Source: an uncultured Thermoplasmata archaeon | GTDB taxonomy: Archaea > Thermoplasmatota > Thermoplasmata > SG8-5 | Direction: 5' to 3' | NCBI GenBank assembly: GCA_964354755.1 | Contig: CAYHBA010000002.1 | Coordinates: 92,002-156,001, forward strand | Length of the DNA stretch: 64,000 nt | Shown here: positions 4,145 through 30,040 of the stretch, piece by piece | Numbering within the stretch: position 1 is the first letter of the stretch | Layout of the letters: each line of letters begins with the position of its first letter | Program-made: the position numbers and the translations under genes | The notes under the pieces: model-generated | Databases searched by the model: none | The model's input: the letters and a program-made list of their open reading frames with translations, nothing else | What the model was told of the DNA's origin: nothing

Positions 4145-4175
4145 ATTAATAAATTGCCCAGGCAATACTGTATAT

Positions 4176-11506: not shown

Positions 11507-11588
11507 TCTCGGCAGACTTTATTAATCCATTTTTGACATGTCAGTTTTCACCCCAAGGTTTATCGTGTCCCTGGGAAATCGGGAGCCG

Positions 11589-15617: not shown

Positions 15618-15809
15618 CTATAGCAATCACAATGAATGGCCGATATAAGGGATTATTTCAACATCATGGGCGGTTTTGTGGAGGATTTGATGCAAATCGT
15701 TGAAAGACAGGAACGAACCGCGAAACATGAGTCCACATCCCAACCGCACGAAAGTCCCAGACAAAGCCATCAACATACTTCACCTCGGGCACTGGCCCAA
15801 ATTATCGCA

Positions 15810-15818
15810 ATTAATATG
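15810..15818 (+). promoter_or_regulatory. TATA-box-like element upstream of tRNA-Leu
   Basis: ttaatatgt lies about 28 nt upstream of the tRNA 5' end. Confidence 0.4.
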
Positions 15819-15844
15819 TACGAATAGCATATTGTGCCCATTGT

Positions 15845-16053
15845 GCGAGGATAGCCAAGCCCGGCCAATTATGCTTACAGGCATCATTGCTTTGCAATGC
15901 AAGCTGAGTTCACAGGCCACGGCGATAGGAGCGGCCACACCTGGCCGCGACTAAGCCGATGACCGGATATCGGAGCCTGCAGGCATAGGTCATCGGCGAT
16001 AGACTCAAGATCTATTCCTTAGTGGTTCATCGGTTCGAATCCGATTCCTCGCA
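15845..16053 (+). tRNA. tRNA-Leu (anticodon CAA) with an intron of about 126 nt in the D-loop. Exons are 15845-15868 and 15995-16053.
   Basis: Acceptor GCGAGGA/TCCTCGC pairs 7 of 7. The Leu-type D-arm GCC-AAGCCCGGCCAA-[intron]-GGC is present. Anticodon arm is ATAGA-CTCAAGA-TCTAT, with a variable arm and T-arm ATCGG-TTCGAAT-CCGAT. The intron contains a 10-bp hairpin GCCGATGACC/GGTCATCGGC next to the 3' junction. Confidence 0.6.
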
Positions 16054-16430
16054 TATTATTTCCATAATCTCTTTGAGCATATGCTCGTCAGCACCGTTCC
16101 TTTCGCCGCAGCGAAAGGTATGCGCCCGGACGGGAAGTTTGAGAGAGACGAAACCGTGCGACCCATGCAAGAGCTAATAATATGGCACCCCGCCCTCTGC
16201 GCCGAATTGTGCGCAATTCGGCTTGCTCGCATCGATGTTGATAAACTGAAAGGAAGCTACGATGCTCGTACAGGCGGGGCTTGTTGCAGATAAACCGCCT
16301 TCATGCACGCCATGCGAAAGCGCACTCGCGGCCATATCGTTTCAAGACCCCGGGCTTACACCCGGGGCATGCTGGTGAGAAAGCGACGTGAATGGCGCTG
16401 GGTTGGCCGGCGCTCGTGCTGCGCCATCTA

Positions 16431-16440
16431 AACATTTATA
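16431..16440 (+). promoter_or_regulatory. BRE/TATA-like element upstream of tRNA-Val
   Basis: aacatttata lies about 30 nt upstream of the tRNA 5' end. Confidence 0.45.
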
Positions 16441-16469
16441 CACGATGGGCATTTCCCACAATACCCGAT

Positions 16470-16572
16470 GGGCCGGTGGTCTAGTGGTTCTGGTGCCGGG
16501 TTTTCCGACATCAACACAAATGACGTCGCCCTTACAAGGCGAAGATCGGCGGTTCAATTCCGCCTCGGCCCA
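16470..16572 (+). tRNA. tRNA-Val (anticodon UAC) with a 30-nt intron in the D-loop (16490-16519)
   Basis: Acceptor is GGGCCGG/TCGGCCC with a G-U at 7-66. D-arm is GTC-TAGTGGTT-[intron]-AT-GAC. Anticodon arm is TCGCC-CTTACAA-GGCGA, followed by a 5-nt variable loop and T-arm GGCGG-TTCAATT-CCGCC. Confidence 0.65.
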
Positions 16573-16845
16573 CTCTTTTTTCATTTTGTTATCATACGTG
16601 GGCCTCAGCGGAATTCACAACTTATGGTGGGATATGTTGGGGTCTTAAGTTGTGAACACAGCCGAATTCCTCTGGTGTCATATGCTGAATACGGAATTCG
16701 GCTTGGCCGCGAAATATGCTTCGATATAGCCAGGGTCTTAATTCGCGGCTTCCGCCCCGGCCCCTGTGCAACTTCCGATTGCGGCCTTTGTGATGCTAGA
16801 CTTCGGGATTTTGGTGGGGGGATAAGCCGGGGGGAAGTCGCTTTA

Positions 16846-18951
16846 TCATACGATTTTTAACTTCATCCTCCTCTTCCTCGCGCAGATTGGACACCAATGT
16901 TTCTGTTTTACACTCGAAGGTGTAGCTTTCCATATGTGGCCATCTGCACATTGCCAATCTAACTTTATATGGTTTCCAAAGTATTTTTCTGAAAGGCAAC
17001 GACCGCCATGTTCAGCAGCCATCTCCCGCATCTTTTCAATAGTAAGTCTCTTCGGTCCCATTGTCTTTCTCATGCATGTAGTACACCAATGACCCGCTCT
17101 GATGTTTTGAGGTGTAGCCCACCATTCATGGCCAAATTCACAGCGCCAGTGTAGGTTAGTGCTATTATTGACATACACATCAGATAGACACTCACCTTTC
17201 CTTTCCCTGGCAATTTCTCGCATCATCTCGATTGTCAGTTTCTTTGCATTGTCTGAGCACTGCCTGCACCAATTACCCTTTTTTACACTGCTTGGATTCA
17301 TCGAGAACTTGTGCCCAATTTTACACTGCCATTTCAATTTGACATTTGCTCCAAGATACCTATCGGAAAGGCATTCTCCTCCCTGTTCTTTAGCTAATTC
17401 TCTCATTTCTTCAATGGAACCAACATTGTGTCCACAATATGGGCACCAACTACCACGAATTACATTGCTCGGTGTTGCCTTCCAGGTATGTCCTTTAGAA
17501 CATTGCCATTCTAATTTGCGATATATGCCCCGATATTCTTTGGATAGACAAAGACCGCCATGTTTCCTTGCTACTTCCATCATCTCTTCAATTGTTCTGT
17601 TTCGACCATAGCATTTCGGGCACCACGAGCCCATCTGTTTGATAGAATAAGGGATTGCTTCCCAAACATGTCCTTTACTACATCTCCATTTTAATTTCTT
17701 ATCTGTTGAATAATAAATATCAGATAAGCACTCCCCCCCTCGTTCTTTAGCCAGTTGCTGCATTTCTTCCAATCGTTTCCTGGAAAACACATCGAAATCC
17801 AGGTAATTAATTGTTGAAAGGTCTACATTGATGCTAATTTCTCTTTTTTTACATTCTTGAGCAATATATTGGCCCATCTCCTTGTGCGAAACGTCGTAAG
17901 GCACTTCAATCAGAGTGACATGGTTCCTGGCACATATTGACCGTTTCCATTGATCTCGTTGTATCAATTCATGTAATTTATCCTCCCCATATATCGGACG
18001 TGTGTGTTGAGCCCCCTGATATTCAAATGCCAGCTTCAGGTCTTTGTTAAACCCATCCAATTCCATTTTTTGCGATGTTTCTAAATTTACTAACCACGAA
18101 GGCCGTACCTTCTTGAATTTCACTCCGAAAATAGCCTCAAACCAGCCTCGGCAGATATTTTCACTGAGTGTGTTTCTACATATTGGGCACCAATTACCTT
18201 TATTAATTTCGGCCCAAGGGGCTTCCCAATCATGACCCTCGCAGCATTTCCATTTTAATTTTGTATGTGCGTTTTCATATTCATCAGATAGGCATTCGCC
18301 ACCTCTTTTTTTCGCTTCATTCTTCATTTGTTCAAGTGTATGTCTCATATGGCCAGAGCATTGAAGACACCATCGGCCAGTTCTAATGTCTCTCGGAGTA
18401 GCCCACCAAGTATGGCCTTTTTTGCATTGCCATTGTAATTTTGAAGCATTCCCCCCATAGTCAACCGAAAGGCATTTACCACCTTTCGCTGCAGCATTTA
18501 TTTTCAGGTCTTCAATGGTTAGCCGTTTCTGTCCAGCACATTCTGGACACCAATGTCCATTTATTATTGCTCCTAGGCTTGTTTTCCAAATATGTCCTTC
18601 TTTACATTGCCATTTCAAATGCGTTTTACTATTAACATATTTTTCAGAGAGGCATTTACCCCCTTTATTGTGTGCTATCTCTTGCATATCCTTGATTGTT
18701 TTACAAAAATGTCCTGCACACTCTGGGCACCATGTTCCCATTCTTATATGATTAGGAACTGCCTTCCAGACATGTCCTTTGGCACATTGCCATGTTAGAT
18801 GGGTTTGACTATTGATATATGCCTCTGAGAGACATTTGCCTCCCCGTTCCTTTGCAAGGTTCTGCATATCTTCTATTGTGTACCTTATCCGAGCCATTAT
18901 ATCACTCAATTGCTCGTCTTCGACCCCTTTCATAATATTCTTTACATTCAC
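16846..18951 (-). CDS. Protein with nine tandem zinc-ribbon repeats (4 + 5) flanking a central PD-(D/E)xK / DUF559-like nuclease domain
   Basis: The repeat unit is about 58 aa, for example LTIEDM.A.ERGGKCLS..Y.....L.WQC..GH.W.A.P...R.G.WCP.C.G. The central segment MELDGFNKDLKLAFEYQGAQH resembles the catalytic core of restriction-endonuclease-fold (Vsr/DUF559) proteins. Low GC. Confidence 0.65.
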   Translation of the reverse strand: MNVKNIMKGVEDEQLSDIMARIRYTIEDMQNLAKERGGKCLSEAYINSQTHLTWQCAKGHVWKAVPNHIRMGTWCPECAGHFCKTIKDMQEIAHNKGGKCLSEKYVNSKTHLKWQCKEGHIWKTSLGAIINGHWCPECAGQKRLTIEDLKINAAAKGGKCLSVDYGGNASKLQWQCKKGHTWWATPRDIRTGRWCLQCSGHMRHTLEQMKNEAKKRGGECLSDEYENAHTKLKWKCCEGHDWEAPWAEINKGNWCPICRNTLSENICRGWFEAIFGVKFKKVRPSWLVNLETSQKMELDGFNKDLKLAFEYQGAQHTRPIYGEDKLHELIQRDQWKRSICARNHVTLIEVPYDVSHKEMGQYIAQECKKREISINVDLSTINYLDFDVFSRKRLEEMQQLAKERGGECLSDIYYSTDKKLKWRCSKGHVWEAIPYSIKQMGSWCPKCYGRNRTIEEMMEVARKHGGLCLSKEYRGIYRKLEWQCSKGHTWKATPSNVIRGSWCPYCGHNVGSIEEMRELAKEQGGECLSDRYLGANVKLKWQCKIGHKFSMNPSSVKKGNWCRQCSDNAKKLTIEMMREIARERKGECLSDVYVNNSTNLHWRCEFGHEWWATPQNIRAGHWCTTCMRKTMGPKRLTIEKMREMAAEHGGRCLSEKYFGNHIKLDWQCADGHIWKATPSSVKQKHWCPICARKRRMKLKIV

Positions 18952-19156
18952 TCAACGTATAATCATTTAAAGACTTCGGTATATTGGCCGCAAACGTATC
19001 TAATATAAAAAATAATAAAACTCTTTTTACCTTTGGGGTTAATATTCCCTTTATATCTTCATCATTTCCTGTCCAATTTTGTTTTACAGCATATGTTACT
19101 AGTTCTTTCATTAGTCTTTGAAATTCAGCTTCCCGAAACATGCCATTCAACCTCAC
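18902..19156 (-). CDS. Hypothetical 84-aa protein; overlaps the start of the zinc-ribbon gene by 50 nt
   Basis: ORF only, no recognisable domain. Possibly co-transcribed with the gene at 16846. Confidence 0.25.
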   Translation of the reverse strand: MRLNGMFREAEFQRLMKELVTYAVKQNWTGNDEDIKGILTPKVKRVLLFFILDTFAANIPKSLNDYTLSECKEYYERGRRRAIE

Positions 19157-19209
19157 ACTTAATATCCATAATGATTTCAGAATGTATAATGGTTTACCGA
19201 AAGACTAAT

Positions 19210-19233
19210 AAAGAGAAAAAGAGGGACGATTTC
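19210..19233 (-). terminator. Shared T-rich terminator-like motif
   Basis: Minus-sense reads gaaatcgtccctctttttctcttt just 3' of the gene ending at 19269. Variants of the same motif occur at 23272-23297 and 26101-26123. Confidence 0.45.
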
Positions 19234-19268
19234 CTGAACAATACACATTTTTAATTGAGAATACAGCA

Positions 19269-19814
19269 TTATAGAACTATTCTTACCCAACATGAACCAA
19301 AACACACTGGGCATCTGCCAGTGCCATTGCAATATGAGCAAGGTTTTTTCAGAATACTACCAATTTTACCAGTCCCGTGGCACTGCGAACACATTCCTGA
19401 AGGCCTACCTGAAACCAATCCATATGGGCCTATTGGATCACAAGCAATGCAAGTGGCAACTCTCTGCCTCTGATGCTCTCTGCATAAATTACGACCTCCA
19501 TCATTAACGATTCTGCCCATGTTTGCCGCACTCTGGAATAGACCCTGTTCTCGCGAATTTAGTTTACTGCAAAAATAACATTCCTGTTTCTCGCAAATTT
19601 CACACTTGAATAAACGATTACCTTCTGTCAGAGTGTTACCACAATTTGGACATAATGGTAGACTGCTAACTGCCCCAGTGTGATGAACCTGCATACTATT
19701 TTCTTCTATCAGAACTTTACCTCCGCAATGACTGCAATATCCAATTTTTAAAGTATCTGGGAATTGAAGATCCGCACCACAATTTGGACATCTTGCAGGA
19801 ATTAAGTTCACCAT
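19269..19814 (-). CDS. Cys-rich zinc-finger protein with several CxxC/CxxCxGxG-type ribbons; start trimmed to the Met at 19814
   Basis: Contains CPNCGADL, CSHCGG, CPNCGNT, CEICEKQECYFC, CSQCHGTGK and CSYCNGTGRCPVCFGSC. Confidence 0.5.
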   Translation of the reverse strand: MVNLIPARCPNCGADLQFPDTLKIGYCSHCGGKVLIEENSMQVHHTGAVSSLPLCPNCGNTLTEGNRLFKCEICEKQECYFCSKLNSREQGLFQSAANMGRIVNDGGRNLCREHQRQRVATCIACDPIGPYGLVSGRPSGMCSQCHGTGKIGSILKKPCSYCNGTGRCPVCFGSCWVRIVL

Positions 19815-19835
19815 AACATTCCCTTTGTTAATGTT

Positions 19836-19860
19836 AAAGCCCGGTAATAAGGCTTTCGTC
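19836..19860 (-). promoter_or_regulatory. Shared promoter-like motif: a TTATTA TATA-like element sits inside the inverted repeat AAAGCC...GGCTTT
   Basis: Minus-sense reads gacgaaagccttattaccgggcttt about 38 nt upstream of the ATG at 19814. The same motif occurs upstream of at least four other island genes. Confidence 0.5.
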
Positions 19861-19917
19861 AGGAGGCAGGGATCCTCCGGCAGGGCATCACGCCGGCCAG
19901 GGGCTTCAGGATACATT

Positions 19918-20355
19918 CTACCATATGTAATGTTTAACATTATTTCGACAATTAATGCAATATCTTGTATCTGGTGCAAGATTGGTTTTGCATCGGTGAC
20001 ATTCAAAATAACCTTTTTCTCTAATCATTTCTATTCGATTTAAATTATATAATCCCTCTAAGAATAATAAGATTGAACATAAAATAAGGATTATCCACGT
20101 ATATACACGAGTATGTATTAGTTCATTCCATCCTTTAATAAGGGGTATAACAATTATTATCATCCATACAATGATTGGAGAAAAAATTGAGGTGTAAGTA
20201 TACCATTTTAATTTTCGAGGTATTGCGTTGTTTTGAAGAATGTATGTTTTTTGAACATGCCCGCATTTGTCACATTTTGATGTCGAAATGGGATTTGCAC
20301 AGTAACCGCACCAGTTATGATGGAAATCACTTCTTTGAGGAATAATTGTTGACAT
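19918..20355 (-). CDS. Zinc-ribbon membrane protein, hypothetical
   Basis: N-terminal C-x2-C...C-x2-C ribbon. C-terminal C-x2-C...C-x2-C ribbon. Two or three TM helices lie between them. Confidence 0.4.
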   Translation of the reverse strand: MSTIIPQRSDFHHNWCGYCANPISTSKCDKCGHVQKTYILQNNAIPRKLKWYTYTSIFSPIIVWMIIIVIPLIKGWNELIHTRVYTWIILILCSILLFLEGLYNLNRIEMIREKGYFECHRCKTNLAPDTRYCINCRNNVKHYIW

Positions 20356-20370
20356 GCGCCTTTCGCCCCT

Positions 20371-20406
20371 CAAGTGAATGCGAAAGCCCGGTAATAAGGC
20401 TTTCGT
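20371..20406 (-). promoter_or_regulatory. Shared promoter-like motif copy upstream of the gene starting at 20355
   Basis: Minus-sense reads acgaaagccttattaccgggctttcgcattcacttg, followed by gaggggcgaaaggcgc and then ATG. Confidence 0.5.
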
Positions 20407-20450
20407 AAGCCAGCCCAGTGGTAATTTCGCCTTGGTCTTTGATCTTCGAC

Positions 20451-20972
20451 TTAATCCAGTGTGAAGGTTGTAGGTTCATCCATCCGAAGTAAATCCTCCC
20501 ATGAATATTCCCAAATGACTACCGAATAAGTCGTATGCTGACCAAGGTTAGAAACAACGATGAAATCATTTTTATTAACCTCATTCTCCTGGAAATTCAT
20601 GTCTGTGTACTCTGCTGATGCGCCTCCTGTTGCACTCATCGTAACAGTTGATGCGCCCGGTGGGGTCTGTAAATATATTTCCACAACATCAGATTGATTC
20701 GAAGTATTGGTGATAATCAATTTTATATCACATGGCATTGGATTATAACTGGGTGGTGGGTGTCCAGCTAATATCTCCATAAAAATGATTTTCACACTCG
20801 TTGAACTTTGAACATCGAATTGTAGTTTGGCATGAGGGGATGTGTCTTTGGGTGGTCCGAATGGACCTATACCCAATGCCATTGCGAGAGTTAGCGGAAT
20901 TAAAACTGCCCCGGCTACTACAATGAAAATAATTTCACCTTTGTAATTCTCCCAATTCCTTTTGGATTTCAT
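20451..20972 (-). CDS. Archaeal type IV pilin-like protein (class III signal peptide); paralog of the protein at 10964-11506
   Basis: KG then EIIFIVVAGAVLIPLTLAMAL. The shared C-terminal domain is PPGASTVTMSATGGASAEYTDMNF. Confidence 0.65.
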   Translation of the reverse strand: MKSKRNWENYKGEIIFIVVAGAVLIPLTLAMALGIGPFGPPKDTSPHAKLQFDVQSSTSVKIIFMEILAGHPPPSYNPMPCDIKLIITNTSNQSDVVEIYLQTPPGASTVTMSATGGASAEYTDMNFQENEVNKNDFIVVSNLGQHTTYSVVIWEYSWEDLLRMDEPTTFTLD

Positions 20973-21028
20973 TGCATATGAATTGATTTGAATCTATATA
21001 TAGTTATTATTGACATGTCAATAATGAT

Positions 21029-21055
21029 CCTGTAACAAGGCTTTCGTTTGTTACC
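21029..21055 (-). promoter_or_regulatory. Shared promoter-like motif variant upstream of the pilin-like gene
   Basis: cctgtaacaaggctttcgtttgttacc lies about 60 nt upstream of the start at 20972. Confidence 0.35.
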
Positions 21056-21111
21056 AATCCACAGTCCAAACAGCATCCACTGGGACATGAATCCAAAATA
21101 TCCGAGTATTT

Positions 21112-21199
21112 TTCTTTTAAATTTTCTCCGCTGGCTCGGGCTCTAAAGAAAAATATTCAGCAAAGAAGAAACTCGCCACTCGCCTGCTCGAAAATTCAT
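21112..21199 (-). terminator. T-rich terminator-like element (repeat family 2, copy 2) 3' of the surface-protein gene
   Basis: About 80% identical over 90 nt to the element at 3126-3218. Minus-sense is T-rich. Confidence 0.45.
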
Positions 21200-23215
21200 T
21201 TACCAATTAATTGTCCATATCGTATCCGCAACCACGTGTACCCAGTACCCTTCGCCCGGCTTCATGATGTATGTCGGGCCGGCCTCGGATATTAGGTATG
21301 GTGAGGCAGGGTCGAAGACCTCCACCCGATTCGCCCCTGTACCCCAGAGGGCGTTGGCTACTGTGGTATTATTGTTCAAGGTGGGGAAGCTGACCAGGTT
21401 CCAACCCGCGTAAAGAATGATGCTGGTGGATTGCGGTTCCGCCCCGAAAACTGTCAAGTTGCAGGCCACCGTGGCGTGTAGCCATAAACCCATCGTGTTG
21501 TCGATATAGGTGAGGTCGTTGGCTGTGCCTCCTATTCGGTATGACTTCCAAGGATCCATTTTATCTGTTGGGTCGCACCATTTCACGACATCCCATTTTC
21601 CAGAAATGGAGGACAGTACATTCTCTATTGAGGTACTGGTCATTTCGAAAGGCACAGAGACGAGGTTCCAACCAGCTATAAGTTCGATGGTGCAGACCTG
21701 TGGCAAGGGTTGCCACCGGAACAACGGGTAAGTAATACCCTCCCTCATCCACCAGATGTTTTCGAAGTCCCAGCTTACGTTAGTAAATGTGCTCTGGGTT
21801 TTCATCACGACCGTTGTTTCTCCGGTAGCGTTGCCCGCGGTGCTGTTTTGCCCGCTGGTTTCGACGTCCCAGAAGTTGCCAGTCATCTCATAGTTCCCGC
21901 CTGTGAATATGTCTCCGACAAAGCCTTTGTTCGTTGGATTTGAACCACCATAATAAATCACCTGGCCCGTGGAATAACAGTTGATGATCTTGCCTTGATA
22001 ATTTCTCGCGGCAAACCCACCGAAATACTCATTTGTCCCAGATGAACGTGTCACTGTTCCAGTGGCGTATGAATTTCTAATAGTTCCTAGATAATTCTGA
22101 CTCACTAGTCCGCCAACATACCATACACTTCCACTTACGTTTCCAGTAGCATACGATTTATTAACCGTTCCCCTATTCTGTCCTATTAAACCACCAACAT
22201 TGGATTCTCCAGTTGTGGCTCCAGTGGCATAACAAGCCCTCACTGAGCCCATATTTTCTCCTATTAAGCCACCTATATTATTGAAAGAACCAGTCACTGT
22301 TCCAATGGCGAATGAGTCAATTACAGCGCACCCCCCTAATTCGTTGTAGCCCACGAGTCCTCCCACAATAGAACCACCAATAACATTTCCCATGGCATGT
22401 GAGTTTAAAACCAGGTCTCGGTTTACTCCCACGAGCCCGCCGACACTACCACCGGTACCGCTCACATTTACAATGGCATATGAGTTGTTCACCGTGTCAT
22501 AGTTCGCTCCTATAAGCCCACCGATTCGATGTTTTCCATTCACGGTGCCTGTAGCATGTGAGTTGGCCACAATACCATAGCTGTAACCCACAAGCCCGCC
22601 AATATAATAACTACCAGTTCCACTAACGGTACCTATGGCATATGAATTTGTTATCGTACCCTGATAGTTTTGACCTACGAGCCCGCCAACATACTCGTAT
22701 CCACTCACGGTTCCAGTGCAGTATGAGTTGGTCACTGTATCACAGTTAAATCCCACCAGGCCGCCAACATTGGATCTTCCAGTGATATTGACTTCAATGA
22801 GGCCAACGTTCTTTACGAAACCCCCACTATCAATATATCCGAGGAGTCCTTGATAATTCGTACCCGTTCGGTTGATGTGCAGTCCAGTGATGGTGAAGTT
22901 CTGGCCGTCAAGACTACCGGTAAACCGATTTGGATTTGTTCCAACCGCCACGAAACCTGCGCCACTGTTCCAGTTTATAGTATCGTGCGCGTCAATGTCA
23001 TTCCCCAATGCATAATGTGCCGTTAAGTTCAAACTCATATTTTGCAGTTCCCACACATTCTCAATTATATACGGGTCCTCGACCGTTCCGGAACCCCCAG
23101 CTAAAGCGGTTACTGGTACATCTGAACTCACAACCTCATCCACACATATTCCCACAAACATGCCGCTGAGAAGCATCAGGGCAACGATATAAATTAAGAT
23201 TGACTTCTTCCACAT
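21200..23215 (-). CDS. Secreted surface protein with GLUG-motif beta-helix repeats (VGGLVG.N.G.I.NSYATG) and a duplicated C-terminal beta domain
   Basis: Signal peptide MWKKSILIYIVALMLLSG. More than 12 GGLVG/GGLIG repeats. The C-terminal GWNLVS.P...EAGPTYIMKPGEGYWVHV domain occurs twice. Confidence 0.6.
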   Translation of the reverse strand: MWKKSILIYIVALMLLSGMFVGICVDEVVSSDVPVTALAGGSGTVEDPYIIENVWELQNMSLNLTAHYALGNDIDAHDTINWNSGAGFVAVGTNPNRFTGSLDGQNFTITGLHINRTGTNYQGLLGYIDSGGFVKNVGLIEVNITGRSNVGGLVGFNCDTVTNSYCTGTVSGYEYVGGLVGQNYQGTITNSYAIGTVSGTGSYYIGGLVGYSYGIVANSHATGTVNGKHRIGGLIGANYDTVNNSYAIVNVSGTGGSVGGLVGVNRDLVLNSHAMGNVIGGSIVGGLVGYNELGGCAVIDSFAIGTVTGSFNNIGGLIGENMGSVRACYATGATTGESNVGGLIGQNRGTVNKSYATGNVSGSVWYVGGLVSQNYLGTIRNSYATGTVTRSSGTNEYFGGFAARNYQGKIINCYSTGQVIYYGGSNPTNKGFVGDIFTGGNYEMTGNFWDVETSGQNSTAGNATGETTVVMKTQSTFTNVSWDFENIWWMREGITYPLFRWQPLPQVCTIELIAGWNLVSVPFEMTSTSIENVLSSISGKWDVVKWCDPTDKMDPWKSYRIGGTANDLTYIDNTMGLWLHATVACNLTVFGAEPQSTSIILYAGWNLVSFPTLNNNTTVANALWGTGANRVEVFDPASPYLISEAGPTYIMKPGEGYWVHVVADTIWTINW

Positions 23216-23387
23216 CGTGGATAATAGGAACGTTCTGCTAAATTAACCTTTCCTATGTGATTTATAGTTCATAAAAGAGAAAAAGATGGCCGGTTTCCCC
23301 GCATTCCGAGATTTTAATTCACGTATGAACTAACCTTTAGCCAGCAGAGTCAGATTCAATTCCGCCTTTAATGGACGAATCCAGATA

Positions 23388-25733
23388 CTACCAATCCACA
23401 GTCCATATTGTATCCGTTGGGACATGTACCCAGTACCCTTCGCCCGGCTTCATGATGTATGTCGGGCCGGCCTCCTTGATGTAAGGCGAAACAGAGTCGA
23501 ACGCCTCCACCCTATCCGCTCCCGTGCCCGAGAGAGCCTCTGCGACTGTCATTTCCGAATTCCGGGCCGGGTATCCGACCATGTTCCATCCTGTGTGCAG
23601 AGATATGCTTGTGGATGCGGGCATAATTCCCTCGCCTGCGGTCAGCACCCCGTCCCCGCCGTTGTCGGTGATGTGGAGCCAGATGCCCATGGTATTGTCG
23701 ATCTCCGGCATGTCGTTTGACGATGCCTGCCCTTTCTTATTGAATGATTTCCAGGGGTCCGCAGCATCCTGGGTGTCGAACCACATCGCCCGGTCCCAGG
23801 TCGTGCCGCCGTCTCCATACAATACATCGTTGAACACGGCAGTAATTCTTGTATGGACAGTCAATGGTACGGAAACGAAGGTCCAATAGCCGGTGCCGTC
23901 TCTTGACCGGTTGCTATCTGTATTCACGTCGAAAGTCTTCCAGTTGAACGGCCCTGCTTCCGGCGCAGTGCCGTTGGCAGGAATGCCGACATCATCGGCT
24001 CCGCCCTTCGCGTTCGCGATCCAGTAGAATTTACTCGGCTTTGGGCAGGGATTGGATTCGGGGGTCCAGTCGAACGAGCCATCCACACTTGCATCTGTCC
24101 CGATACAGTTCCAGTTGTCTCCGTGGTTCGTAGAATAAAACAGGTCGATTTCTGTCGGGGTTTCTGTCCAGTTATAGGTGATTGTAATGATTGGGTCGTG
24201 GCCGGCGCCCTGGGGGCCGGTGGCGGTGGCTGTTGAATTTGAATAAACCGTGACGTTTAAAGTATCAATTGAATACAAACCAGTTGTACTTGTAACATTT
24301 AAAGTCACAGTATAGACCCCTATAGATTCATATTTATGAGTTGGAGTAGAACCTATTGCGTCAATATCATTCGTTGGATTACCATCTTGATTAGTATCAA
24401 TATTAGCATTGAAATCCCAACTATAACTAAGTACTTCTGCATTTTTTGCATTATCCCATTGCCAGAGTAGATTTGAACCACCTGCTGTGGTGAACACGTA
24501 TAAAGTTCCATTTGAAGTTGCGCCAGCGTAATAATTTCCATCAAAAGAGCATGAGATATGATTGACAATTCCATTAGTATAAAAAATAGATTCTGGTGTT
24601 CCATTTGCTGGCGTGAATTGATATATTCCTCCATCTTGATTACCGCCAAAGATGTATTGACCATCAGTAGCCATATCTAATGACATACATGCCATACTGG
24701 TCACATGGGTCCAAATTGGAGAAGAACTTGAATTACTGAAAAGTCGAAACCCGTGAGAGGTAGAGGCTCCCCTAGTCTTATACTCTGCAGTGGCAATATA
24801 TTGACCATTATCTGCTGTAACCATCCCGATATGTTTCCCCAAAGATTCTGCAACCCATATACGATTTCCATTGTTATTAAATAACTGTGTATGTTGTAAA
24901 TCGCCTTGTCCCGCTGCAATTTTATTACCATAATAATCTAAAGAAATAGTATAAATTGGACAAAAATAATCAGAATTTTCAGGGAGTATTTTAAAAATGA
25001 AACCTTCTGAAATACCATAATACCGAATTTCATACCAGAATGAGCCTGCGGCAAAGTGAGTACCGTCACCCGAAAATCGAACACTCAATACGGACTGAGG
25101 GAAATCAAAAATATTTATTGGTGATCCTGAATTTGTTTCAAAGAGATAAACTTTACCTACTTTTTCCATTTGAGCTGAAATAGAGAGAAATGTTCCTAGA
25201 GCAATATAATTTCCATCACGAGTCATATCGAAGGCTCTCCGACTTGTTCCATATATGGGATAATTGGTTTGATATGTCCATATCGGTGTACTTTGATTGG
25301 TATTAAAAAAGGAAACATAACCTCTCGATTCCCAAGTATTTGATGGGTCATCATTTTGTGCGGTTGCAAGGTATGTGCCATTTTCAGAAAGAACAACAGC
25401 TACAACTGTTTTTTCAGTGTTAAATGTCCAAAGAGGCTCACTGTTGTTAAGATGAAATAAAGTAATATTTGTTCCCCATCCAATAACAATATAATTACCA
25501 TCCCCAGATATATCTACTACATTAATCGCTTGTCTGTAATTTGGATCATAAGATCCAGTTCCATTGAACTGAACGATTTCATTTACATCTACAAATTGAT
25601 CTGGACCAGCATCAGCTATTGGTGGCAATAAATTATTTATTATATTTTTATCTATGGTTGAAGAAATAACAGTGGGGCTGATGAGAAGAATAACAATTAC
25701 TATTGGTAAGAAAAATGTTCTCATACTTTTCAC
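23388..25733 (-). CDS. Secreted surface protein with beta-propeller repeats, a PKD domain and a C-terminal domain shared with the protein at 21200-23215
   Basis: Signal peptide is present. Propeller blades are YIATA- and YFAAG-type. The PKD-like segment reads TPTHKYESIGVYTVTLNVTSTTG. The last roughly 45 aa are nearly identical to the neighbour at 21200, with a 50-nt identical stretch in the DNA. Confidence 0.6.
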   Translation of the reverse strand: MKSMRTFFLPIVIVILLISPTVISSTIDKNIINNLLPPIADAGPDQFVDVNEIVQFNGTGSYDPNYRQAINVVDISGDGNYIVIGWGTNITLFHLNNSEPLWTFNTEKTVVAVVLSENGTYLATAQNDDPSNTWESRGYVSFFNTNQSTPIWTYQTNYPIYGTSRRAFDMTRDGNYIALGTFLSISAQMEKVGKVYLFETNSGSPINIFDFPQSVLSVRFSGDGTHFAAGSFWYEIRYYGISEGFIFKILPENSDYFCPIYTISLDYYGNKIAAGQGDLQHTQLFNNNGNRIWVAESLGKHIGMVTADNGQYIATAEYKTRGASTSHGFRLFSNSSSSPIWTHVTSMACMSLDMATDGQYIFGGNQDGGIYQFTPANGTPESIFYTNGIVNHISCSFDGNYYAGATSNGTLYVFTTAGGSNLLWQWDNAKNAEVLSYSWDFNANIDTNQDGNPTNDIDAIGSTPTHKYESIGVYTVTLNVTSTTGLYSIDTLNVTVYSNSTATATGPQGAGHDPIITITYNWTETPTEIDLFYSTNHGDNWNCIGTDASVDGSFDWTPESNPCPKPSKFYWIANAKGGADDVGIPANGTAPEAGPFNWKTFDVNTDSNRSRDGTGYWTFVSVPLTVHTRITAVFNDVLYGDGGTTWDRAMWFDTQDAADPWKSFNKKGQASSNDMPEIDNTMGIWLHITDNGGDGVLTAGEGIMPASTSISLHTGWNMVGYPARNSEMTVAEALSGTGADRVEAFDSVSPYIKEAGPTYIMKPGEGYWVHVPTDTIWTVDW

Positions 25734-26049
25734 TTCACCTATAATATGAATGATTATGCATCCTTATAATGTTTTCGTGTAAGCTTACTAAAATTAGATA
25801 ATAAATGGTCATTTTTAGACATTTTAATATGCTGGCACCTGACCACCATTTAGTAAAAATACAAGTTCTTCTCCTATCTGTAATGTAGTAAGTGAACTTC
25901 TGTTTCCAATTAAACGAAATTCTAATCCCCCACAACCTAATCTATTTCTAAACGACTTTAAAATCTTTTCTATTTACTTACGATGACCGCCAAACACTTT
26001 GTTTTTTATGCACATTAATCGGGCATACAGCCCTAGCCAGTAGTCGCTT

Positions 26050-26091
26050 GCCCCAAGTGAATGCGAAAACTCAGTATTAAGGGTTTCGTCG
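26050..26091 (-). promoter_or_regulatory. Shared promoter-like motif variant, about 320 nt upstream of the start at 25733 across an AT-rich leader
   Basis: ccccaagtgaatgcgaaaactcagtattaagggtttcgtcg is related to the motif at 20371-20406. Confidence 0.35.
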
Positions 26092-26142
26092 ATAAGAAGA
26101 AAGAGAAAAAGGGGGACGATTTCGTCGCCTTCCATTTCGCCC

Positions 26143-26673
26143 CTAGTACTTCCTAAAATCCAGGAACGTCATCCCCTTCCTGGCCCTCTCCCTCTCCTCC
26201 TTCAGATGCTGCTGCAATCCGACCTTCATCACCCGTTCGTGGTGCTTCAGAACCACCGGGTACCTGCCGCGCTGGTATTCCGTCCTCTTGCAGGTCGGGA
26301 ACGTCTCGCACAGAAGGCAGCTCTTCAGCTTCCGCGCTTTCTTGCATTTCATGACCTCGCACCACGGCTCCTTGATGTTCTGGCATCCGGGGCACTTCAT
26401 CTTGGAGAGCCACACAAGCCCTTTGTCCATGTCCCCGAAGTCGAAGTCCACCGAATCCTGGGCCCACAGGCAGTTGCCTTTGGTTGTGCGGGAGAGCTCT
26501 GTGGCCAGTTCGGCCACCCTTCCGTTACCGGTGGGGCACATCTCGCAGAACACGCCGCAGACACCGTATGTATATTCTTGTTTAGGGGTTTTCTTCATGG
26601 CAATCGCTCTCCGCAGTGCTGGCAGAAATCTCTCGCGCATTTGAGGTATCTGCCTTGCCTGGATAGGACCCAT
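26143..26673 (-). CDS. Cys-rich protein, DUF3795-like, possible metal or Fe-S binding
   Basis: Contains CGVFCEMCP, CPGCQ, CEVMKC and CLLCETFPTC. The start could be the internal Met at 26598. Confidence 0.4.
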   Translation of the reverse strand: MGPIQARQIPQMRERFLPALRRAIAMKKTPKQEYTYGVCGVFCEMCPTGNGRVAELATELSRTTKGNCLWAQDSVDFDFGDMDKGLVWLSKMKCPGCQNIKEPWCEVMKCKKARKLKSCLLCETFPTCKRTEYQRGRYPVVLKHHERVMKVGLQQHLKEERERARKGMTFLDFRKY

Positions 26674-26777
26674 CGTAAATCAAGTTTCTTTTTCTTGGGT
26701 GTTTTTTTTGGTAATTGTTTGCCGCACCATGGACATGTATTCGAATCGCATTGCATGTCGCATTCTTCCTTCATCGC

Positions 26778-26813
26778 GTGTGAATGTTAAGTTCTCGTAA
26801 TAAGGTTTTCGTC
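26778..26813 (-). promoter_or_regulatory. Shared promoter-like motif variant upstream of the Cys-rich protein gene
   Basis: gtgtgaatgttaagttctcgtaataaggttttcgtc. Confidence 0.35.
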
Positions 26814-26974
26814 TCCCGATATCTGTTGGATGTGAATCCCTACGGCTCGCCTAGCGCCTTCACGCACTTGCCGGCCCGCGGCTTCATGCTTATCTGGGCG
26901 GCATCGGAGAGTGATTATTCGCGCCCGCTGCCCGGTGGTGTCGCCCCCCGCTGTATTTTAGGCCCAAATGGTCC

Positions 26975-29900
26975 TCAACCCAATTCACGCCTGACAATCT
27001 CGACCTTGTAACCGAGTTTGAGCTCCTCGAATGTGCGCAGGGCTTTCCCCAGCATATCCTTGGCTGCAGGAATCCCCTTTTTCTTCATGGCCCGCCCGTA
27101 CTCGAGATAGGTCTCAGCCAGCTCCAGTTTTATCTTCGCGGACGTGAGGACCGTAATCGAGGTCTTGAAATGGTCTTCCGCCTCGGGCCAATTCCCGCGC
27201 CCTGCCTCTATCATCCCCCAGAATCTGTGGGAGATGCCTTCGCCCTCCTTGACGTCCAGCTCCTTCGCCAGTTCAATGGTTTTCTTAACGAATTCCTCGG
27301 CCTCGTCGGACTTCCCCGTCTTAATCAGCAGTTCTCCTTTGGCCTGCAGGATATCGACCATCAGCCTTTTGTTGCCCATCTCCAATGTGGCCTTCTCCGC
27401 TGCCTCTATATTGGCTCTCGCCCCTTCGAAATCGCCGGTCTGGAGCTGAACAAGGGACATGTTGAGCTCCATCATCGCCTCACCAATTTTGTCCCCCAAC
27501 TTCGTAAAGATGTCGAGTGCCCTCCTGTGGAATTCCAGCGACTTTGTATGATCTCCTCGGGTATGGTAAATGACTGCCAGGTTGTTCAGCGTGCTTCCCA
27601 TGCCGCGTGGATGTCCGAGTCTTTGGAAAACTGCGTGGCACCTCTCGTAATTGTCATGAGCCCTGTCGTAATCGCTCATGGATTTGTACACGATCCCCAG
27701 GTTGTTCAGGGCGACGCCGATGGATAATGTGTCCCCCAGCTTCTCGAAGGTCTTCAGGCTGCGCTCGAACACCTCCAGAGCTTCGGCATACCGGTCCCTG
27801 TCCGCCAGGATATGCCCGATGCTGTTGAGCGCGATTCCGGTTCCCCTGAGGTAGCCGATCCGCTCGAACTCCTCCAAAGCTTTATGGAAATTCACGAGTC
27901 CGCGATCGTAATCGCCGATGTCTACGTATAGCTGCCCCATCCTGTGGAGCACATCCGCGACGTCCTTCTCGGTCCCGCTGAGTTTCTGGAATATCTCCAG
28001 AGCCCTATTCTCTTTGGATATGGCCTCTTCGTACAATCCTTTATGTTCCTGGACAGCGCCGATTGCAGACAGTATCCTGGCGAATTCTACCCCTTCCCCA
28101 GCGGCGACCAGCACCCTCGCCTTCTCAAGCTCGTCGGCCACCCTGTCGTATTCCCCTCTCGTCGCATATATGGAGGATACCTTCCTATGAACCCTGGCTA
28201 TCACTTCCGGGTCGTCGCTGAGGTCCTTGACCCTCTCAAAGGCAGTCTTCGCCTCGTCGAGCCTGCCTGTGATTTCGTAAACTTCTCCCATTTCCTCCAG
28301 CAGCCTCGCGAGCTCCGCCCCCCGTTTCCGCCCATCCATTTCCATGAGCTCAAGCGCGTAGTTGCTGTACCGCAGGGTTTCCTTGTTCGCATATTGGGCC
28401 TTTGCAAGCTCGATTGCCCTCCTGAGGTTCGGCAAGGCCTTGTTCGCATCCCTGGCCATGTAGAAATGGTATCCGGCTTCGGCGACAACCTCGTCTGATG
28501 CGCCGTAGAGGTCCGTGATAGAATCACCCACCATCCCGTGGTACTCCCTTCTCAGCTCTCCGGGCAGGCCGCTGTAAAGCACTTCCCGTATCTTCACATG
28601 GCTGAAGGCGTAATTCCTCTCCATGGAGACAATAAGTCCGTGAGACCTCTCTATCTCGCTGAGGTTCTTCAGCAGCTCGATCTTTTTCACCTCAGCCACT
28701 TTACTCAAAACATCCGACGTGAACACGTCGCCGATGACCGAAGCCGGCTCCAGGATGAGCATCTGGTCTTTCGGTAGCCTCGCGAGCCTCCTGGATATCA
28801 CATCGTGGATTTTCACGGGGAGGTCGATGGTGTCCGGCCTTTTTGTTAGGCTCCAGGCGCCGTCCTTGTGGACCAGCGCCCCCTCCCCTTTCAATAAATT
28901 GATCACTTCGACTGCGAAGAGAGGGTTCCCCTGCGTTTCCCTCCAAAGGAAATCCACGAACTCGTCTCTGCCATCTACTTTGCCCAGGGTCGCGCCGACC
29001 AGCCCGGTCACAGCATCCCTCCCGAGGTTCCGCAGCTCGACCCGTTCCAGCAAGCCCTCGCCGCTCATGAGCTGTATGGCCTCCTTCAGCTGGTGCATCT
29101 TGCCGTCCCATGACGCCAGTATGTCCTCGGCCCTGTAGGTTGCAAGCATGAAGAGCCTTGAAGCCCTAGTGTTCCTGGAGATGTAATGCAGCAATGCCAG
29201 CGTCGACGGGTCTGCCCACTGGAGGTCGTCTATGAAGAGCAGAATCGGGCGCGCCTTGGTCTCCCTCTCCAATCCCTTCAAGACATTCTCGAAGATGCTG
29301 TTCTGCTTCGATTTGGGGTCCCCCTTCGCCCAGTCTATGCCGTCGAACCTCTCCGAGTCGAACATCTCCTTCAACGAGTCCTTGGCTCCTGTGAATTCGT
29401 CCACCAGTCCATCGAAATGCACTAACTTCCCGCCAAACCTGGCCTCCAGTTCCGCGAGAGTTTGCTGCAGATCGCCAAGCAGCGCCTCGTTCTCCCTCCC
29501 CTTGTAAATAGCCGCCAGGCTCGCGTACCGCCCGTGAATGCAGGAAATGTTGAAATCTCCGTAGCCGAGCCTGGACACATCCCCCTCGGGAAGCCTCCCC
29601 ATCTGTTTCATCGTGTCCTTGATGAACTCGTTGACTGCGGTGAGCATTCCGGAGAAAATGTCGATGTCTATGCCGCTTCCCTCCCGCTCTTGCTTCGAAA
29701 GGACGATGCCGGTCTGCGCGATGAGTAAAACTGTCTCGAGCCTCGGCGGTACCTCCAGGGTCACGAGGTGCTCCAGCCCTCCCGAAGCCAGCAGCTCCCT
29801 CATGGGCAAGAACGGCGTCATGCATCTGCTGAGGCACCATCCTCTCATCACCTTGAACCCCATCGAAGAAGCATTATGGATGCACTCCTCTGCGAGCCTT

Positions 29901-30040
29901 GTCTTGCCCACACCTGCTTCCCCAGCGATGAAGATGGTCGAGCCCCTGCCTGCCATCGCGTTGGTCAGGGATTGGTTGAGCTGGTTCAATTCCATATCTC
30001 GCCCGATAAGTTCCGGCTGTTGCAGGGCTGATTCTTCCAT
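26975..30040 (-). CDS. STAND-type ATPase with C-terminal TPR repeats and a Roadblock/LC7-like domain inserted between Walker A and Walker B
   Basis: N-terminus ELIGRDMEL. Walker A FIAGEAGVGKTRL. Walker B LLFIDDLQWAD lies about 220 aa later. The insert at aa 95-205, DIDIFSGMLTAVNEFIKD...VSRLGYGDFNISCIHGRYASLAAIYKG...ELEARFG, aligns with the modules of the giant protein. More than 10 TPR units follow. Confidence 0.75.
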   Translation of the reverse strand: MEESALQQPELIGRDMELNQLNQSLTNAMAGRGSTIFIAGEAGVGKTRLAEECIHNASSMGFKVMRGWCLSRCMTPFLPMRELLASGGLEHLVTLEVPPRLETVLLIAQTGIVLSKQEREGSGIDIDIFSGMLTAVNEFIKDTMKQMGRLPEGDVSRLGYGDFNISCIHGRYASLAAIYKGRENEALLGDLQQTLAELEARFGGKLVHFDGLVDEFTGAKDSLKEMFDSERFDGIDWAKGDPKSKQNSIFENVLKGLERETKARPILLFIDDLQWADPSTLALLHYISRNTRASRLFMLATYRAEDILASWDGKMHQLKEAIQLMSGEGLLERVELRNLGRDAVTGLVGATLGKVDGRDEFVDFLWRETQGNPLFAVEVINLLKGEGALVHKDGAWSLTKRPDTIDLPVKIHDVISRRLARLPKDQMLILEPASVIGDVFTSDVLSKVAEVKKIELLKNLSEIERSHGLIVSMERNYAFSHVKIREVLYSGLPGELRREYHGMVGDSITDLYGASDEVVAEAGYHFYMARDANKALPNLRRAIELAKAQYANKETLRYSNYALELMEMDGRKRGAELARLLEEMGEVYEITGRLDEAKTAFERVKDLSDDPEVIARVHRKVSSIYATRGEYDRVADELEKARVLVAAGEGVEFARILSAIGAVQEHKGLYEEAISKENRALEIFQKLSGTEKDVADVLHRMGQLYVDIGDYDRGLVNFHKALEEFERIGYLRGTGIALNSIGHILADRDRYAEALEVFERSLKTFEKLGDTLSIGVALNNLGIVYKSMSDYDRAHDNYERCHAVFQRLGHPRGMGSTLNNLAVIYHTRGDHTKSLEFHRRALDIFTKLGDKIGEAMMELNMSLVQLQTGDFEGARANIEAAEKATLEMGNKRLMVDILQAKGELLIKTGKSDEAEEFVKKTIELAKELDVKEGEGISHRFWGMIEAGRGNWPEAEDHFKTSITVLTSAKIKLELAETYLEYGRAMKKKGIPAAKDMLGKALRTFEELKLGYKVEIVRRELG

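Follow-up and report, generated by a model that had tools for sequence, protein, structure and literature searches.

The window, a 64-kb stretch of DNA from an uncultured Thermoplasmata archaeon, carries a low-GC variable island whose minus-strand genes include those for a 181-aa multi-zinc-ribbon protein (ATG 19814), a 145-aa zinc-ribbon ORFan (ATG 20355) and a beta-propeller/PKD surface protein (ATG 25724). Farther upstream, an unannotated 59-aa zinc-ribbon ORF runs into a DUF3795 gene (26143–26598), its stop codon and the start codon of that gene sharing bases in ATGA. An orthologous 59-aa ORF was read by eye at L014:6549–6728 (L numbers denote loci from related genomes). The island proteins are ORFans: the search with the 145-aa protein returned only the protein itself, which was not placed on any contig, and the search with the 59-aa ORF gave zero candidates. 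Within this island recurs a 34-nt module, the copies of which are listed in Table 1 with their neighboring features and are named here after their highest coordinate.

A preliminary description of this DNA reported a promoter-like motif shared by the island genes, and its recurrence was confirmed. The minus-sense 14-mer CGAAAGCCTTATTA at ≤2 mismatches found 5 matches in the window, all of them minus-strand and confined to 19845–26811. The chance level is 0.32 ± 0.58, and 0/100 shuffles reached 5 matches. Relaxing the search to 3 mismatches added a sixth, degenerate copy. For the plus-strand 21-mer AAAGCCCGGTAATAAGGCTTT there are two exact occurrences, 19836–19856 and 20383–20403, where 100 shuffles lead one to expect 0. 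The regular expression CGAAA-N2-4-TTAWWA did not match beyond the known copies in the whole 64 kb. The motif is real, non-random, and restricted to the low-GC island. We rejected the idea that it represents the general promoter consensus of the lineage because the other ~45 genes of the window lack it.

Table 1. Copies of the 34-nt module and associated features in the window.
Feature	Position	Strand	Sequence	Match to CGAAAGCCTTATTA (≤2 mismatches unless given)	Predicted stem	Context
Copy 20405, full module	20372–20405	−	CGAAAGCC-TTATTACCG-GGCTTTCG-CATTCACTT	20392–20405	8/8 pairs, −12 kcal/mol, z = −4.4	16 nt before ATG 20355; identical to L010:2653–2686
Copy 19858, right arm and tail decayed	19825–19858	−	GGCTTTAA-CATTAACAA	19845–19858	6/8 pairs, −7.4 kcal/mol	10 nt before ATG 19814
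Probable 5' remnant (strands P1/P2) of the long repeat, interior deleted	19872–19891	−	GTGATGCCCTGCCGGAGGAT			Just upstream of copy 19858
Copy 26811, putative BRE/TATA half intact	26778–26811	−	CGAAAACCTTATTA	26798–26811	No hairpin	Ortholog at L014:6512–6545
Unannotated 59-aa zinc-ribbon ORF	26595–26774	−				True first gene behind copy 26811
Copy 26088, orphan	26055–26088	−	CGAAACCC-TTAATACTG-AGTTTTCG-CATTCACTT	26075–26088	6/8 pairs, −3.3 kcal/mol	Match to long-repeat model R1, 16.6 bits; absent from the preliminary description
Copy 25777, degenerate	25744–25777	−	CGAAAACATTATAA...CATTCATAT	25764–25777 (3 mismatches)	No hairpin	39 nt before ATG 25724
Copy 21046, left half only	21033–21046	−	CGAAAGCCTTGTTA	21033–21046	No hairpin	60 nt from ATG 20972
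T/C-rich terminator-like tract	26094–26129	−	GGCGACGAAATCGTCCCCCTTTTTCTCTTTCTTC			Directly upstream of copy 26088

Other parts of the preliminary description had to be revised. The palindrome ascribed to all copies is complete in one of six, and copies 26811, 25777 and 21046 lack the hairpin altogether. The supposedly uniform distance of 38–45 nt to the ATG varies, with hexamer-to-start gaps of 30 (19814), 36 (20355), 39 (25724), 23 (26774) and 60 nt (20972). The copy assigned to the start at 26673 instead precedes the 59-aa ORF; its tail CATTCACAC stops 3 nt before ATG 26774, and the 23 nt from the TATA-like hexamer to this ATG correspond to a leaderless geometry.

Copy 21046 comes after the stop codon that ends the relic of a surface-protein gene (21050–21096), an arrangement found exactly alike in L016, and homology breaks inside the motif. 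It was rejected as the promoter of the gene at ATG 20972; a separate TATATATA box precedes the start codon of that gene by 22 nt. Copy 26088 sits at the edge of the lowest-GC segment. T/C-rich tracts similar to the one beside it were found at ~23272–23300 and ~19205–19245, and the same block is present in L002/L009 and L014. Not every copy faces a gene. Copy 1 of L024 does not, nor does window copy 26088, where the next 119 nt downstream contain no start of an ORF of ≥45 aa.

The left arm and loop of the module (CGAAAGCC-TTATTA) fit the BRE/TATA pattern of the host genes, in which the TATA-like box ends 20–23 nt before the ATG with GAAA or GGAA located 2–3 nt upstream (e.g., GGAATCCTTTTAGAA and GAAATCATTTTAACA). 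A purine-rich element followed by an A/T box is found both in five window copies, as CGAAAG-CC-TTATTA, and before host genes, as GAAA-N2-3-TTTTA/TTTAA. The 23-nt distance between the hexamer and ATG 26774 recurs in L014, and the tail ends 20 nt after the TATA-like box in all canonical copies. The spacing to the start codons is thus compatible with a promoter, as the preliminary description had supposed, including the one leaderless case. Thermoplasmata are classed among the leaderless-type archaea, with the promoter box ~26 nt from the starts (PMC6028130). A TFB gene is present in the window.

From this geometry we infer core-promoter activity, in which CGAAAG would serve as the BRE and TTATTA as the TATA box, both in minus sense. 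The 20 bases after the box, consisting of three variable bases, GGCTTTCG and then CATTCACTT, would bridge the gap to the start site, and transcription would begin at the G or GG right after CACTT. Such a start predicts leaders of 0–30 nt, and the 59-aa ORF would be translated from a leaderless mRNA. The module does not resemble an intrinsic terminator, as the tail CATTCACTT is followed by GG and the T/C-rich tracts precede the hairpin instead of following it.

Sequence collections were scanned for the motif, with ~4 matches expected by chance according to our estimate, and the matches came almost only from Thermoplasmata-type contigs. As the left arm and the TATA box were prescribed in both search patterns, the conservation of these two elements in the fetched short copies is partly by design; the bases that the patterns left free are nearly invariant as well, which establishes conservation across genomes. 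Among 40 copies from 20 loci in related genomes, 31 are followed by a same-strand ORF starting 0–54 nt after the tail CATTCACTT. With 31 of 34 bases near-invariant, the module goes far beyond the basal needs of an archaeal promoter, so something else must also constrain the right arm and the tail. A factor recognizing the invariant tail CATTCAC may exist.

The 34-mer forms the terminal stem-loop of a 165–240-nt repeat in related Thermoplasmata contigs. The repeat has a core of ~165 nt, extended to ~240 nt by a 5' helix, and adopts a predicted branched fold of six helices. Its covariation is evident: 17 of the 38 predicted base pairs are changed on both sides, and 94% of the cells are paired, as compared with 40–47% when the partners are slid by 1–2 columns and 32–43% at 3 columns. 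The terminal stem is 100% paired in the 14 long copies, with 7/7 pairs covarying, and the tail pairs with GUGAUGC ~160 nt upstream to form the closing helix GUGAUGC/GCAUUCAC. The long form contains 31 G-U versus 11 A-C cells, and the G-U pairs favor the gene-sense strand. The stem and the tail being part of a sense-strand structure in the long form, transcripts would there cross the supposed promoter.

The A/T-rich box in the terminal loop ends 19–23 nt before the tail end in 13 of the 14 long copies. Loop sequences vary among TTATTA, ATTTATT, TTATATT, TTAAATC and TTTATATA, and variants with an expanded loop retain TTTATATA 19 nt before the tail end. In one long copy (L006:1366–1563), the best TATA-like box is off the expected geometry, at 27 nt from the tail end. 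At one orthologous site, the 5' truncation differs between L019 and L016.

The window palindrome is most likely the last stem-loop of this larger and as yet undescribed folded repeat. The window itself holds only short, partly decayed forms, three of six without the hairpin, which we consider short or internally deleted derivatives of the long form; the long-repeat model R1 matches 19823–19892 with 18 bits (E = 0.004). Because the BRE/TATA half persists while the stem decays, selection presumably retains promoter activity in the window copies. Several identities for the long repeat or its flanks were discarded. A promoter of its own in the T-rich loop of the 5' helix is contradicted by L005 and L006, where this loop is not TATA-like, and a box C/D sRNA (GUGAUGC ... 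CUGA) by the shortness of the element and the lack of D'/C' boxes. ARAGORN found no tRNA beside the long repeats, against a tRNA-like reading of the spacer GGACGAGGCTTCGAACCCC, and a bulge-helix-bulge splicing motif around the flanked genes fails because the helix-adjacent sequences are identical, not complementary.

We therefore favor, at about even odds (a probability of roughly 0.5), the interpretation that the motif is a standardized archaeal core promoter, repeated upstream of accessory genes that are transcribed separately within a variable island of low GC, and that its palindrome is no protein-binding dyad, the 34-mer representing the last stem-loop plus 3' tail of the long repeat. Haloarchaeal core promoters similarly combine a CGAAA BRE with a TATA box at about −27. 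Like archaeal BRE/TATA promoters in general, the module has an A/T hexamer preceded at 2 nt by a purine-rich CGAAAG, a downstream gene of the same orientation, and 20–23 nt from the box to the start codon or the predicted start site. Unlike them, it is nearly invariant across unrelated genes and genomes, even in the 17 nt that separate the TATA box from the start site, and its BRE and the −21 to −14 segment have complementary bases.

The same structural data could also be read as those of an element acting exclusively as RNA. The hairpin and tail would then lie inside transcripts, as a 5' leader or intercistronic region, the long form being one in which they make up one stem of a riboswitch- or ribozyme-like leader; the A/U-rich loop would be no TATA box, and the element would control translation, processing or stability. 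The two-sided changes, the strand preference of the G-U pairs and the long-range pairing of the tail all fit this reading. Long copies also resemble riboswitch-type leaders in having a multi-helix junction with a closing terminal helix, sometimes in tandem (two or more copies precede one gene in L006), and in ending 10–25 nt before an SD-like GGAGG and a start codon. However, short copies such as the three stemless ones in the window keep the BRE/TATA half and the position before genes, and the loops vary in the manner of TATA boxes while their spacing from the tail is kept, even in a loop of 37 nt. Terminator-like T-rich tracts lie directly upstream of some copies (26088 and that of L002), and no usable promoter was seen upstream of copies 20405 and 19858. 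Differences from riboswitch-type leaders include the diverse downstream genes, the occurrence of the last stem-loop on its own before many genes and the copies facing no gene. None of the 4227 families of Rfam 15 matched the window at 15500–27500 (E ≤ 1) or L018:9700–11528 (E ≤ 5), apart from tRNA and noise. We consider an RNA-only element unlikely.

The hairpin and the ~9-nt tail could instead form one end of a mobile or recombining unit, the copies marking cassette junctions and the promoter look being secondary. The 3' boundary is sharp, homology ending at CACTT+G, whereas 5' truncation and internal deletion are variable, and one homology breakpoint falls inside window copy 21046. The copies lie between small accessory genes in one orientation, with four full copies plus degenerate ones in L003 and five long copies in L018. 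In L018 and L006, the genes between repeats have at their flanks inverted repeats that are specific to each gene and covary, together with a direct repeat of constant sequence and 10 nt, CGTAGCGGAG; a repeat in L024 is flanked by nested perfect inverted repeats, and contigs often end at the repeat (L001, L024). If such cassettes recombine, the circle junction would join CCACCGGCCACTC-CGTAGCGGAG-GAGTGGCCGGTGG and the empty site would read tail-GG-CGTAGCGGAG-CTGGGCC, but a filled-versus-empty site pair was not found. Neither integrase, TnpA/TnpB nor reverse transcriptase appeared among the proteins covered by a partial scan of the window and the loci. Viral contig scans (IMG/VR) with the motif and with its right half gave no matches; scanning viral contigs with a long-repeat segment produced only chance matches in high-GC phages, and blastn of the long repeat against plasmid and phage collections produced none. 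Mobility would also leave the constant orientation and the start-codon distance unexplained, and we regard this reading as quite improbable.

Integron attC sites are defined by R''/L''...L'/R' boxes (RYYYAAC ... GTTRRRY), a single bulged hairpin and IntI at the head of the array; attC cassettes are reportedly treated in one study of archaea. As in attC/Vibrio VCR arrays, a conserved folded repeat alternates in one orientation with accessory genes of small size, among them those for GNAT, NUDIX, methyltransferases and membrane proteins, and stems are kept by compensatory change. The repeat differs by the lack of the R''/R' core boxes, of IntI and of an Rfam attC match, by its branched fold and by a promoter-like box toward the next gene. 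We rejected attC identity as the consensus has no R/L boxes, the fold is branched and the scanned loci, whose arrays are incomplete, contain no integrase. IS200/IS605 elements have a subterminal hairpin ~10 nt from the right end and tnpA/tnpB adjacent to some copies. Shared with these ends and with TnpB omega-RNA are a hairpin followed by ~9–10 nt to a sharp end, a structured scaffold of ~200 nt ending there and pairing of the 3' tail with a distant 5' segment; the constant orientation to downstream genes and the 9-nt A/T-rich box as the loop are not shared, and a TnpA/TnpB-type ORF was found beside 0/14 long copies in the loci scanned, which are partial genomes. Small bacterial intergenic repeats that carry promoters (Correia/CREE, ERIC, REP/BIME) are likewise short, multi-copy and hairpin-forming, with common truncated derivatives, and, placed beside gene starts, could supply promoter activity. 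The module, unlike these, is archaeal, and neither terminal inverted repeats nor target duplications of the repeat itself were observed. Its full form also differs from MITE-type repeats in being a covarying multi-helix structure, which we know of in none of them.

The preliminary description had itself proposed that the TATA box lies inside a dyad operator, AAAGCC/GGCTTT, bound by a dedicated dimeric repressor or activator that makes the island genes one regulon. Repressor and activator operators overlapping archaeal core promoters include those of TrmB/TGM, Phr, MDR1 and LrpA, and an inverted repeat likewise sits on or next to the TATA-like box, and is centered on it, in the two best copies, 20405 and 19858. 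Conservation of the 17 nt that follow the loop (GGCTTTCGCATTCACTT) exceeds basal promoter needs, as a factor binding downstream of the TATA box would explain. In contrast to such operators, the arms of the module covary, with the compensatory variants CGCAAGGT/ACCTTGCG, CACAAGCC/GGCTTGTG and CGAAAGGC/GCCTTTCG and no return to a consensus half-site. Among 33 distinct 34-mers, 14 cells are changed on both sides, compared with 3.3 ± 1.5 after shuffling (0/500 shuffles reach 14). Compensatory changes of this kind are the signature of a nucleic-acid stem rather than of conserved half-sites. The dyad is incomplete in five of six window copies and missing in half of them, and in the orthologous pair of copy 26811 and L014:6512 the BRE/TATA half is kept at 13/14 positions while the right arm is kept at 4/8. 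Elsewhere, the motif is followed by functionally unrelated genes, and the targets as a whole encode GNAT, NUDIX, SAM-methyltransferase, transglutaminase-like, membrane and zinc-ribbon proteins. No wHTH, TrmB, Lrp or MarR-type domain was detected by Pfam among 38 window proteins, and a wHTH, TrmB or Lrp-type gene was found neither in the island nor close to it. With half-sites not conserved, no cognate regulator gene in the scanned regions and functionally incoherent targets, a dedicated palindrome-binding factor is very unlikely.

Returning to the core-promoter reading, we know of no described archaeal promoter class that explains an almost entirely frozen stretch from the BRE to the start with the BRE complementary to −21 to −14; a promoter situated in the last stem-loop of a covarying repeat offers an explanation for this frozen sequence. 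The repeat is associated with variable islands in which GNAT, TIR, restriction-type and surface-protein genes abound. We used a C-terminal domain family of the surface proteins to sample downstream regions independently of the motif, and only one of six new loci (L024) carried the repeat. The element is a property of a narrow sub-lineage rather than of the surface-protein gene family. A more far-reaching and doubtful proposal is that the 34-mer ends an undescribed structured Thermoplasmata element, with an outward promoter in its last loop, that punctuates arrays of accessory, defense and surface-protein genes. Such an element might act as an integron-analogous cassette platform without a known recombinase, or as an RNA unit ending one transcript and starting the next.

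For the annotation of the island, the motif corrects gene starts and exposes the 59-aa ORF as the head of the DUF3795 operon. It also provides a promoter signature usable for accessory genes of this uncultured Thermoplasmata lineage. The long repeat suggests a new kind of structured element, of RNA or single-stranded DNA, without an Rfam counterpart. Very few cis-acting structured RNAs are, to our knowledge, known in archaea, and the repeat would add to them if it is an RNA leader or trailer. If it organizes or mobilizes cassettes, it would represent a new route of accessory-gene turnover in archaea.

The motif is real. CGAAAGCCTTATTA, allowing at most two mismatches, had five matches in the window, all on the minus strand (19845-26811), against 0.32 ± 0.58 expected; a weaker sixth copy was also found. 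The 21-mer core occurs exactly twice, with none expected, and a looser BRE-TATA regular expression found no further match anywhere in the 64 kb. These counts exclude chance. The full unit in gene sense reads CGAAAGCC-TTATTAnnn-GGCTTTCG-CATTCACTT. The shared motif upstream of island genes proposed in the preliminary description is thus borne out, with several details corrected. The palindrome, once attributed to all copies, is complete only in copy 20405 (named, like the others, by its upper coordinate; -12 kcal/mol, z = -4.4); in copies 19858 and 26088, 6 of the 8 positions are paired, and copies 26811, 25777, and 21046 have no hairpin. Copy 26811, assigned to the gene starting at 26673, precedes instead an unannotated 59-residue zinc-ribbon ORF (MKEECDMQCDSNTCPWCGKQ...CQHCGERLP), whose stop overlaps the start of the DUF3795 gene and which is conserved in L014, a syntenic contig with 80-89% identity over 8 kb. 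Copy 26088 had been overlooked, and no gene follows it.

The motif placed before the gene at 20972 (copy 21046) is the left half only, and that gene carries a separate TATATATA box, 22 nt before its ATG. Downstream of the intact GLUG gene lies the relic of a surface-protein gene 3' end (..WIHVPVDAVWTVDW*), 91% identical to contig L016, and the half motif comes next; the homology to L016 ends inside it. The relic marks a point within the motif where sequence was replaced or deleted. Directly upstream of the TATATATA box, the perfect 20-bp palindrome ATTATTGACATGTCAATAAT is a cleaner candidate for a TATA-adjacent operator than the reported motif.

The window has archaeal content (PolD small subunit, heliorhodopsin, SRP54, and TFB), and its nearest named relatives are "Thermoplasmata archaeon", "Ca. 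Proteinoplasmatales archaeon SG8-5", and "Methanomassiliicoccales archaeon UBA280". The island at ~17-26 kb has a GC content of 0.34-0.51 vs. ~0.56 for the window background. All its genes lie on the minus strand, encoding a DUF4379/CapR protein, small zinc-ribbon ORFans, a DUF3795 protein, and a GLUG-repeat protein and a beta-propeller/PKD surface protein with a common C-terminal domain. It adjoins two tRNA genes, both missed by ARAGORN and matched only by Rfam below the gathering score, one of them partially; by eye they appear to contain introns. The 13-nt direct repeat TTCAATTCCGCCT occurs in the 3' part of the island-edge tRNA gene and again in the spacer that follows the beta-propeller gene. 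It is possibly an att-like remnant at the borders of a 6.8-kb segment, but ~0.7 such matches would arise by chance. The window encodes three AAA_16 + TPR (STAND/MalT-like) paralogues, one of them right beside the island, and none has a detected DNA-binding domain. Elsewhere, a Ras/Roc-type small GTPase gene adjoins that of a 1539-residue protein with CARDB and DUF5915 domains and a weak Roadblock/LC7 match that falls short of Pfam's gathering score; archaea seldom show this pairing.

Coordinates of features in the window and in related contigs (L numbers)
Feature	Position	Strand
Weaker sixth motif copy	25764-25777	minus
Truncated matches to the long-element model R1	20370-20483; 19823-19892; 26053-26139	
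59-residue zinc-ribbon ORF	26595-26774; L014:6549-6728	minus (window)
Surface-protein relic	21050-21096; L016:2448-2515	minus (window)
ATTATTGACATGTCAATAAT palindrome	21006-21025	
TATATATA box	20995-21002	
tRNA-like genes	15979-16053; ~16490-16573	plus
TTCAATTCCGCCT repeats	16553-16565; 23355-23367	plus
T/C-rich module	~19205-19245; 23272-23300; 26094-26129; L002/L009; L014:7700-7745	
AAA_16 + TPR genes	11538-13883; 26975-30040; 34749-37700	
Small GTPase gene; 1539-residue protein gene	3266-4219; 4367-8986	minus
Membrane-protein gene arrays	L018:7950-11400; L006:200-1700	minus
Enclosed long repeat	L024:6560-6970	

Geometry and comparison support reading the motif as promoter-like. Other window genes carry a TATA-like box whose end lies 20-23 nt ahead of the ATG and which is itself preceded, at a distance of 2-3 nt, by GAAA or GGAA. 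This fits the leaderless type reported for all 11 Thermoplasmata analysed by GeneMarkS-2, with a promoter box ~26 nt from gene starts (PMC6028130). The motif's left half is a good instance of this host TATA/GAAA pattern. The TATA hexamer lies 23 nt from the ATG in both copy 26811 and its L014 ortholog, between which the BRE/TATA half is conserved at 13 of 14 positions and the right arm at only 4 of 8. A same-strand ORF starts 0-54 nt after the tail in 31 of 40 copies (20 loci). Copy 26088 and the copy in contig L002 are each immediately preceded by a T/C-rich terminator-like tract, so that upstream transcripts should end before the hairpin. A T/C-rich module (..CGTCCCC-TTTTTCTCTTT..) recurs after island genes, probably as their terminator, and with the motif would delimit single-gene transcription units.

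Outside the window, scanning 185,579 species genomes gave six loci, five from Thermoplasmatota-type MAGs, with a pattern for which ~4 chance matches were estimated, and metagenomes gave 13 loci. Bases not fixed by the search patterns (GGCTTTCG and the tail end) are nearly invariant, and flanks are unrelated to the window, L014 excepted. Copies outside the pattern selection have arm pairs such as CGCAAGGT/ACCTTGCG, CGAAAGGT/ACCTTTCG, CACAAGCC/GGCTTGTG, and CGAAAGGC/GCCTTTCG, plus G-U variants. Among 33 distinct 34-mers, 14 cells changed on both sides vs. 3.3 ± 1.5 in shuffles, a count reached by none of 500. The palindrome behaves as a stem; conserved half-sites of a dimeric protein would not vary so.

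In six related contigs (L018, L001, L006, L005, L011, and L024), a conserved non-coding block terminates, on its 3' side, in the 34-mer; the core of this block, ~165 nt, folds into six helices (RNAalifold and covariance model R1). Across 14 copies, 94% of cells pair, vs. 40-47% with partners slid by 1-2 columns and 32-43% by 3; both sides have changed in 17 of the 38 pairs, and the terminal stem is 100% paired with 7/7 pairs covarying. The tail GCATTCAC pairs with GTGATGC, which lies ~160 nt farther upstream. G-U pairs are more frequent than A-C pairs (31 vs. 11), favouring folding of the gene-sense strand. In two variants the terminal loop is expanded to 37 nt, and TTTATATA still lies 19 nt before the tail end; the position of the A/T box is thus tied to the tail, as that of a TATA box would be to a start site. 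No family in Rfam matched the motif or the long element, and nothing similar turned up in the plasmid, phage, and IMG/VR collections searched.

All window matches to R1 are truncated. Copy 19858 keeps GTGATGCCCTGCCGGAGGAT, the 5' strands of the two outer helices, with the interior deleted; at one orthologous site, a 3' remnant of the block (GGGGACGGTGAG) survives in contig L019 but in neither L016 nor the window. Compensatory arm changes occur mostly in long copies, and short copies deviate by mismatches, although short copies with a changed left arm are not recoverable by the search patterns. In our reading, it is the long element that gives the stem its functional context, and short copies are derivatives keeping only the promoter part.

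For the window copies, other readings rank below the promoter. The sense-strand structure of the long form covers the predicted start site, which would mean either that the structure is itself transcribed, within a leader or trailer RNA, or that single-stranded DNA adopts the fold. In the L018 and L006 arrays, the ~240-nt structured repeat alternates with genes for small membrane proteins. The constant direct repeat CGTAGCGGAG flanks each of these genes, as do covarying gene-specific inverted repeats, in which each version (GGCCGG, GCCCGG, or GGCTGG) has its own matching partner (e.g., GAGTGGCCGGTGG/CCACCGGCCACTC and GAGTGCCCGG/CCGGGCACTC) and whose 5' arm contains the SD sequence and GTG start codon. 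In L024, a long repeat upstream of a 1789-residue protein gene sits inside nested perfect inverted repeats (GGGACCACCGAACGCC/GGCGTTCGGTGGTCCC, GAGCCCACAACC/GGTTGTGGGCTC, and GCTCAG/CTGAGC), a layout resembling an inverton or long hairpin. These flanking and nested repeats could reflect site-specific insertion or RNA pairing of 5' and 3' ends; the proteins scanned included no integrase, TnpB, or reverse transcriptase.

The proposal that the island genes form one regulon under a dedicated factor is not supported, since the arms covary, unlike conserved half-sites, and the genes behind the motif elsewhere lack functional coherence (GNAT acetyltransferases, SAM methyltransferases, a NUDIX hydrolase, a transglutaminase-like protein, and membrane proteins). 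Neighbouring genes encode TIR, DUF559, HNH, and DUF4379 proteins. The promoter-like motif is an expression module common to accessory genes, not a functional regulon. Its source appears to be the unrecognised structured repeat, which is the interesting part of the finding.
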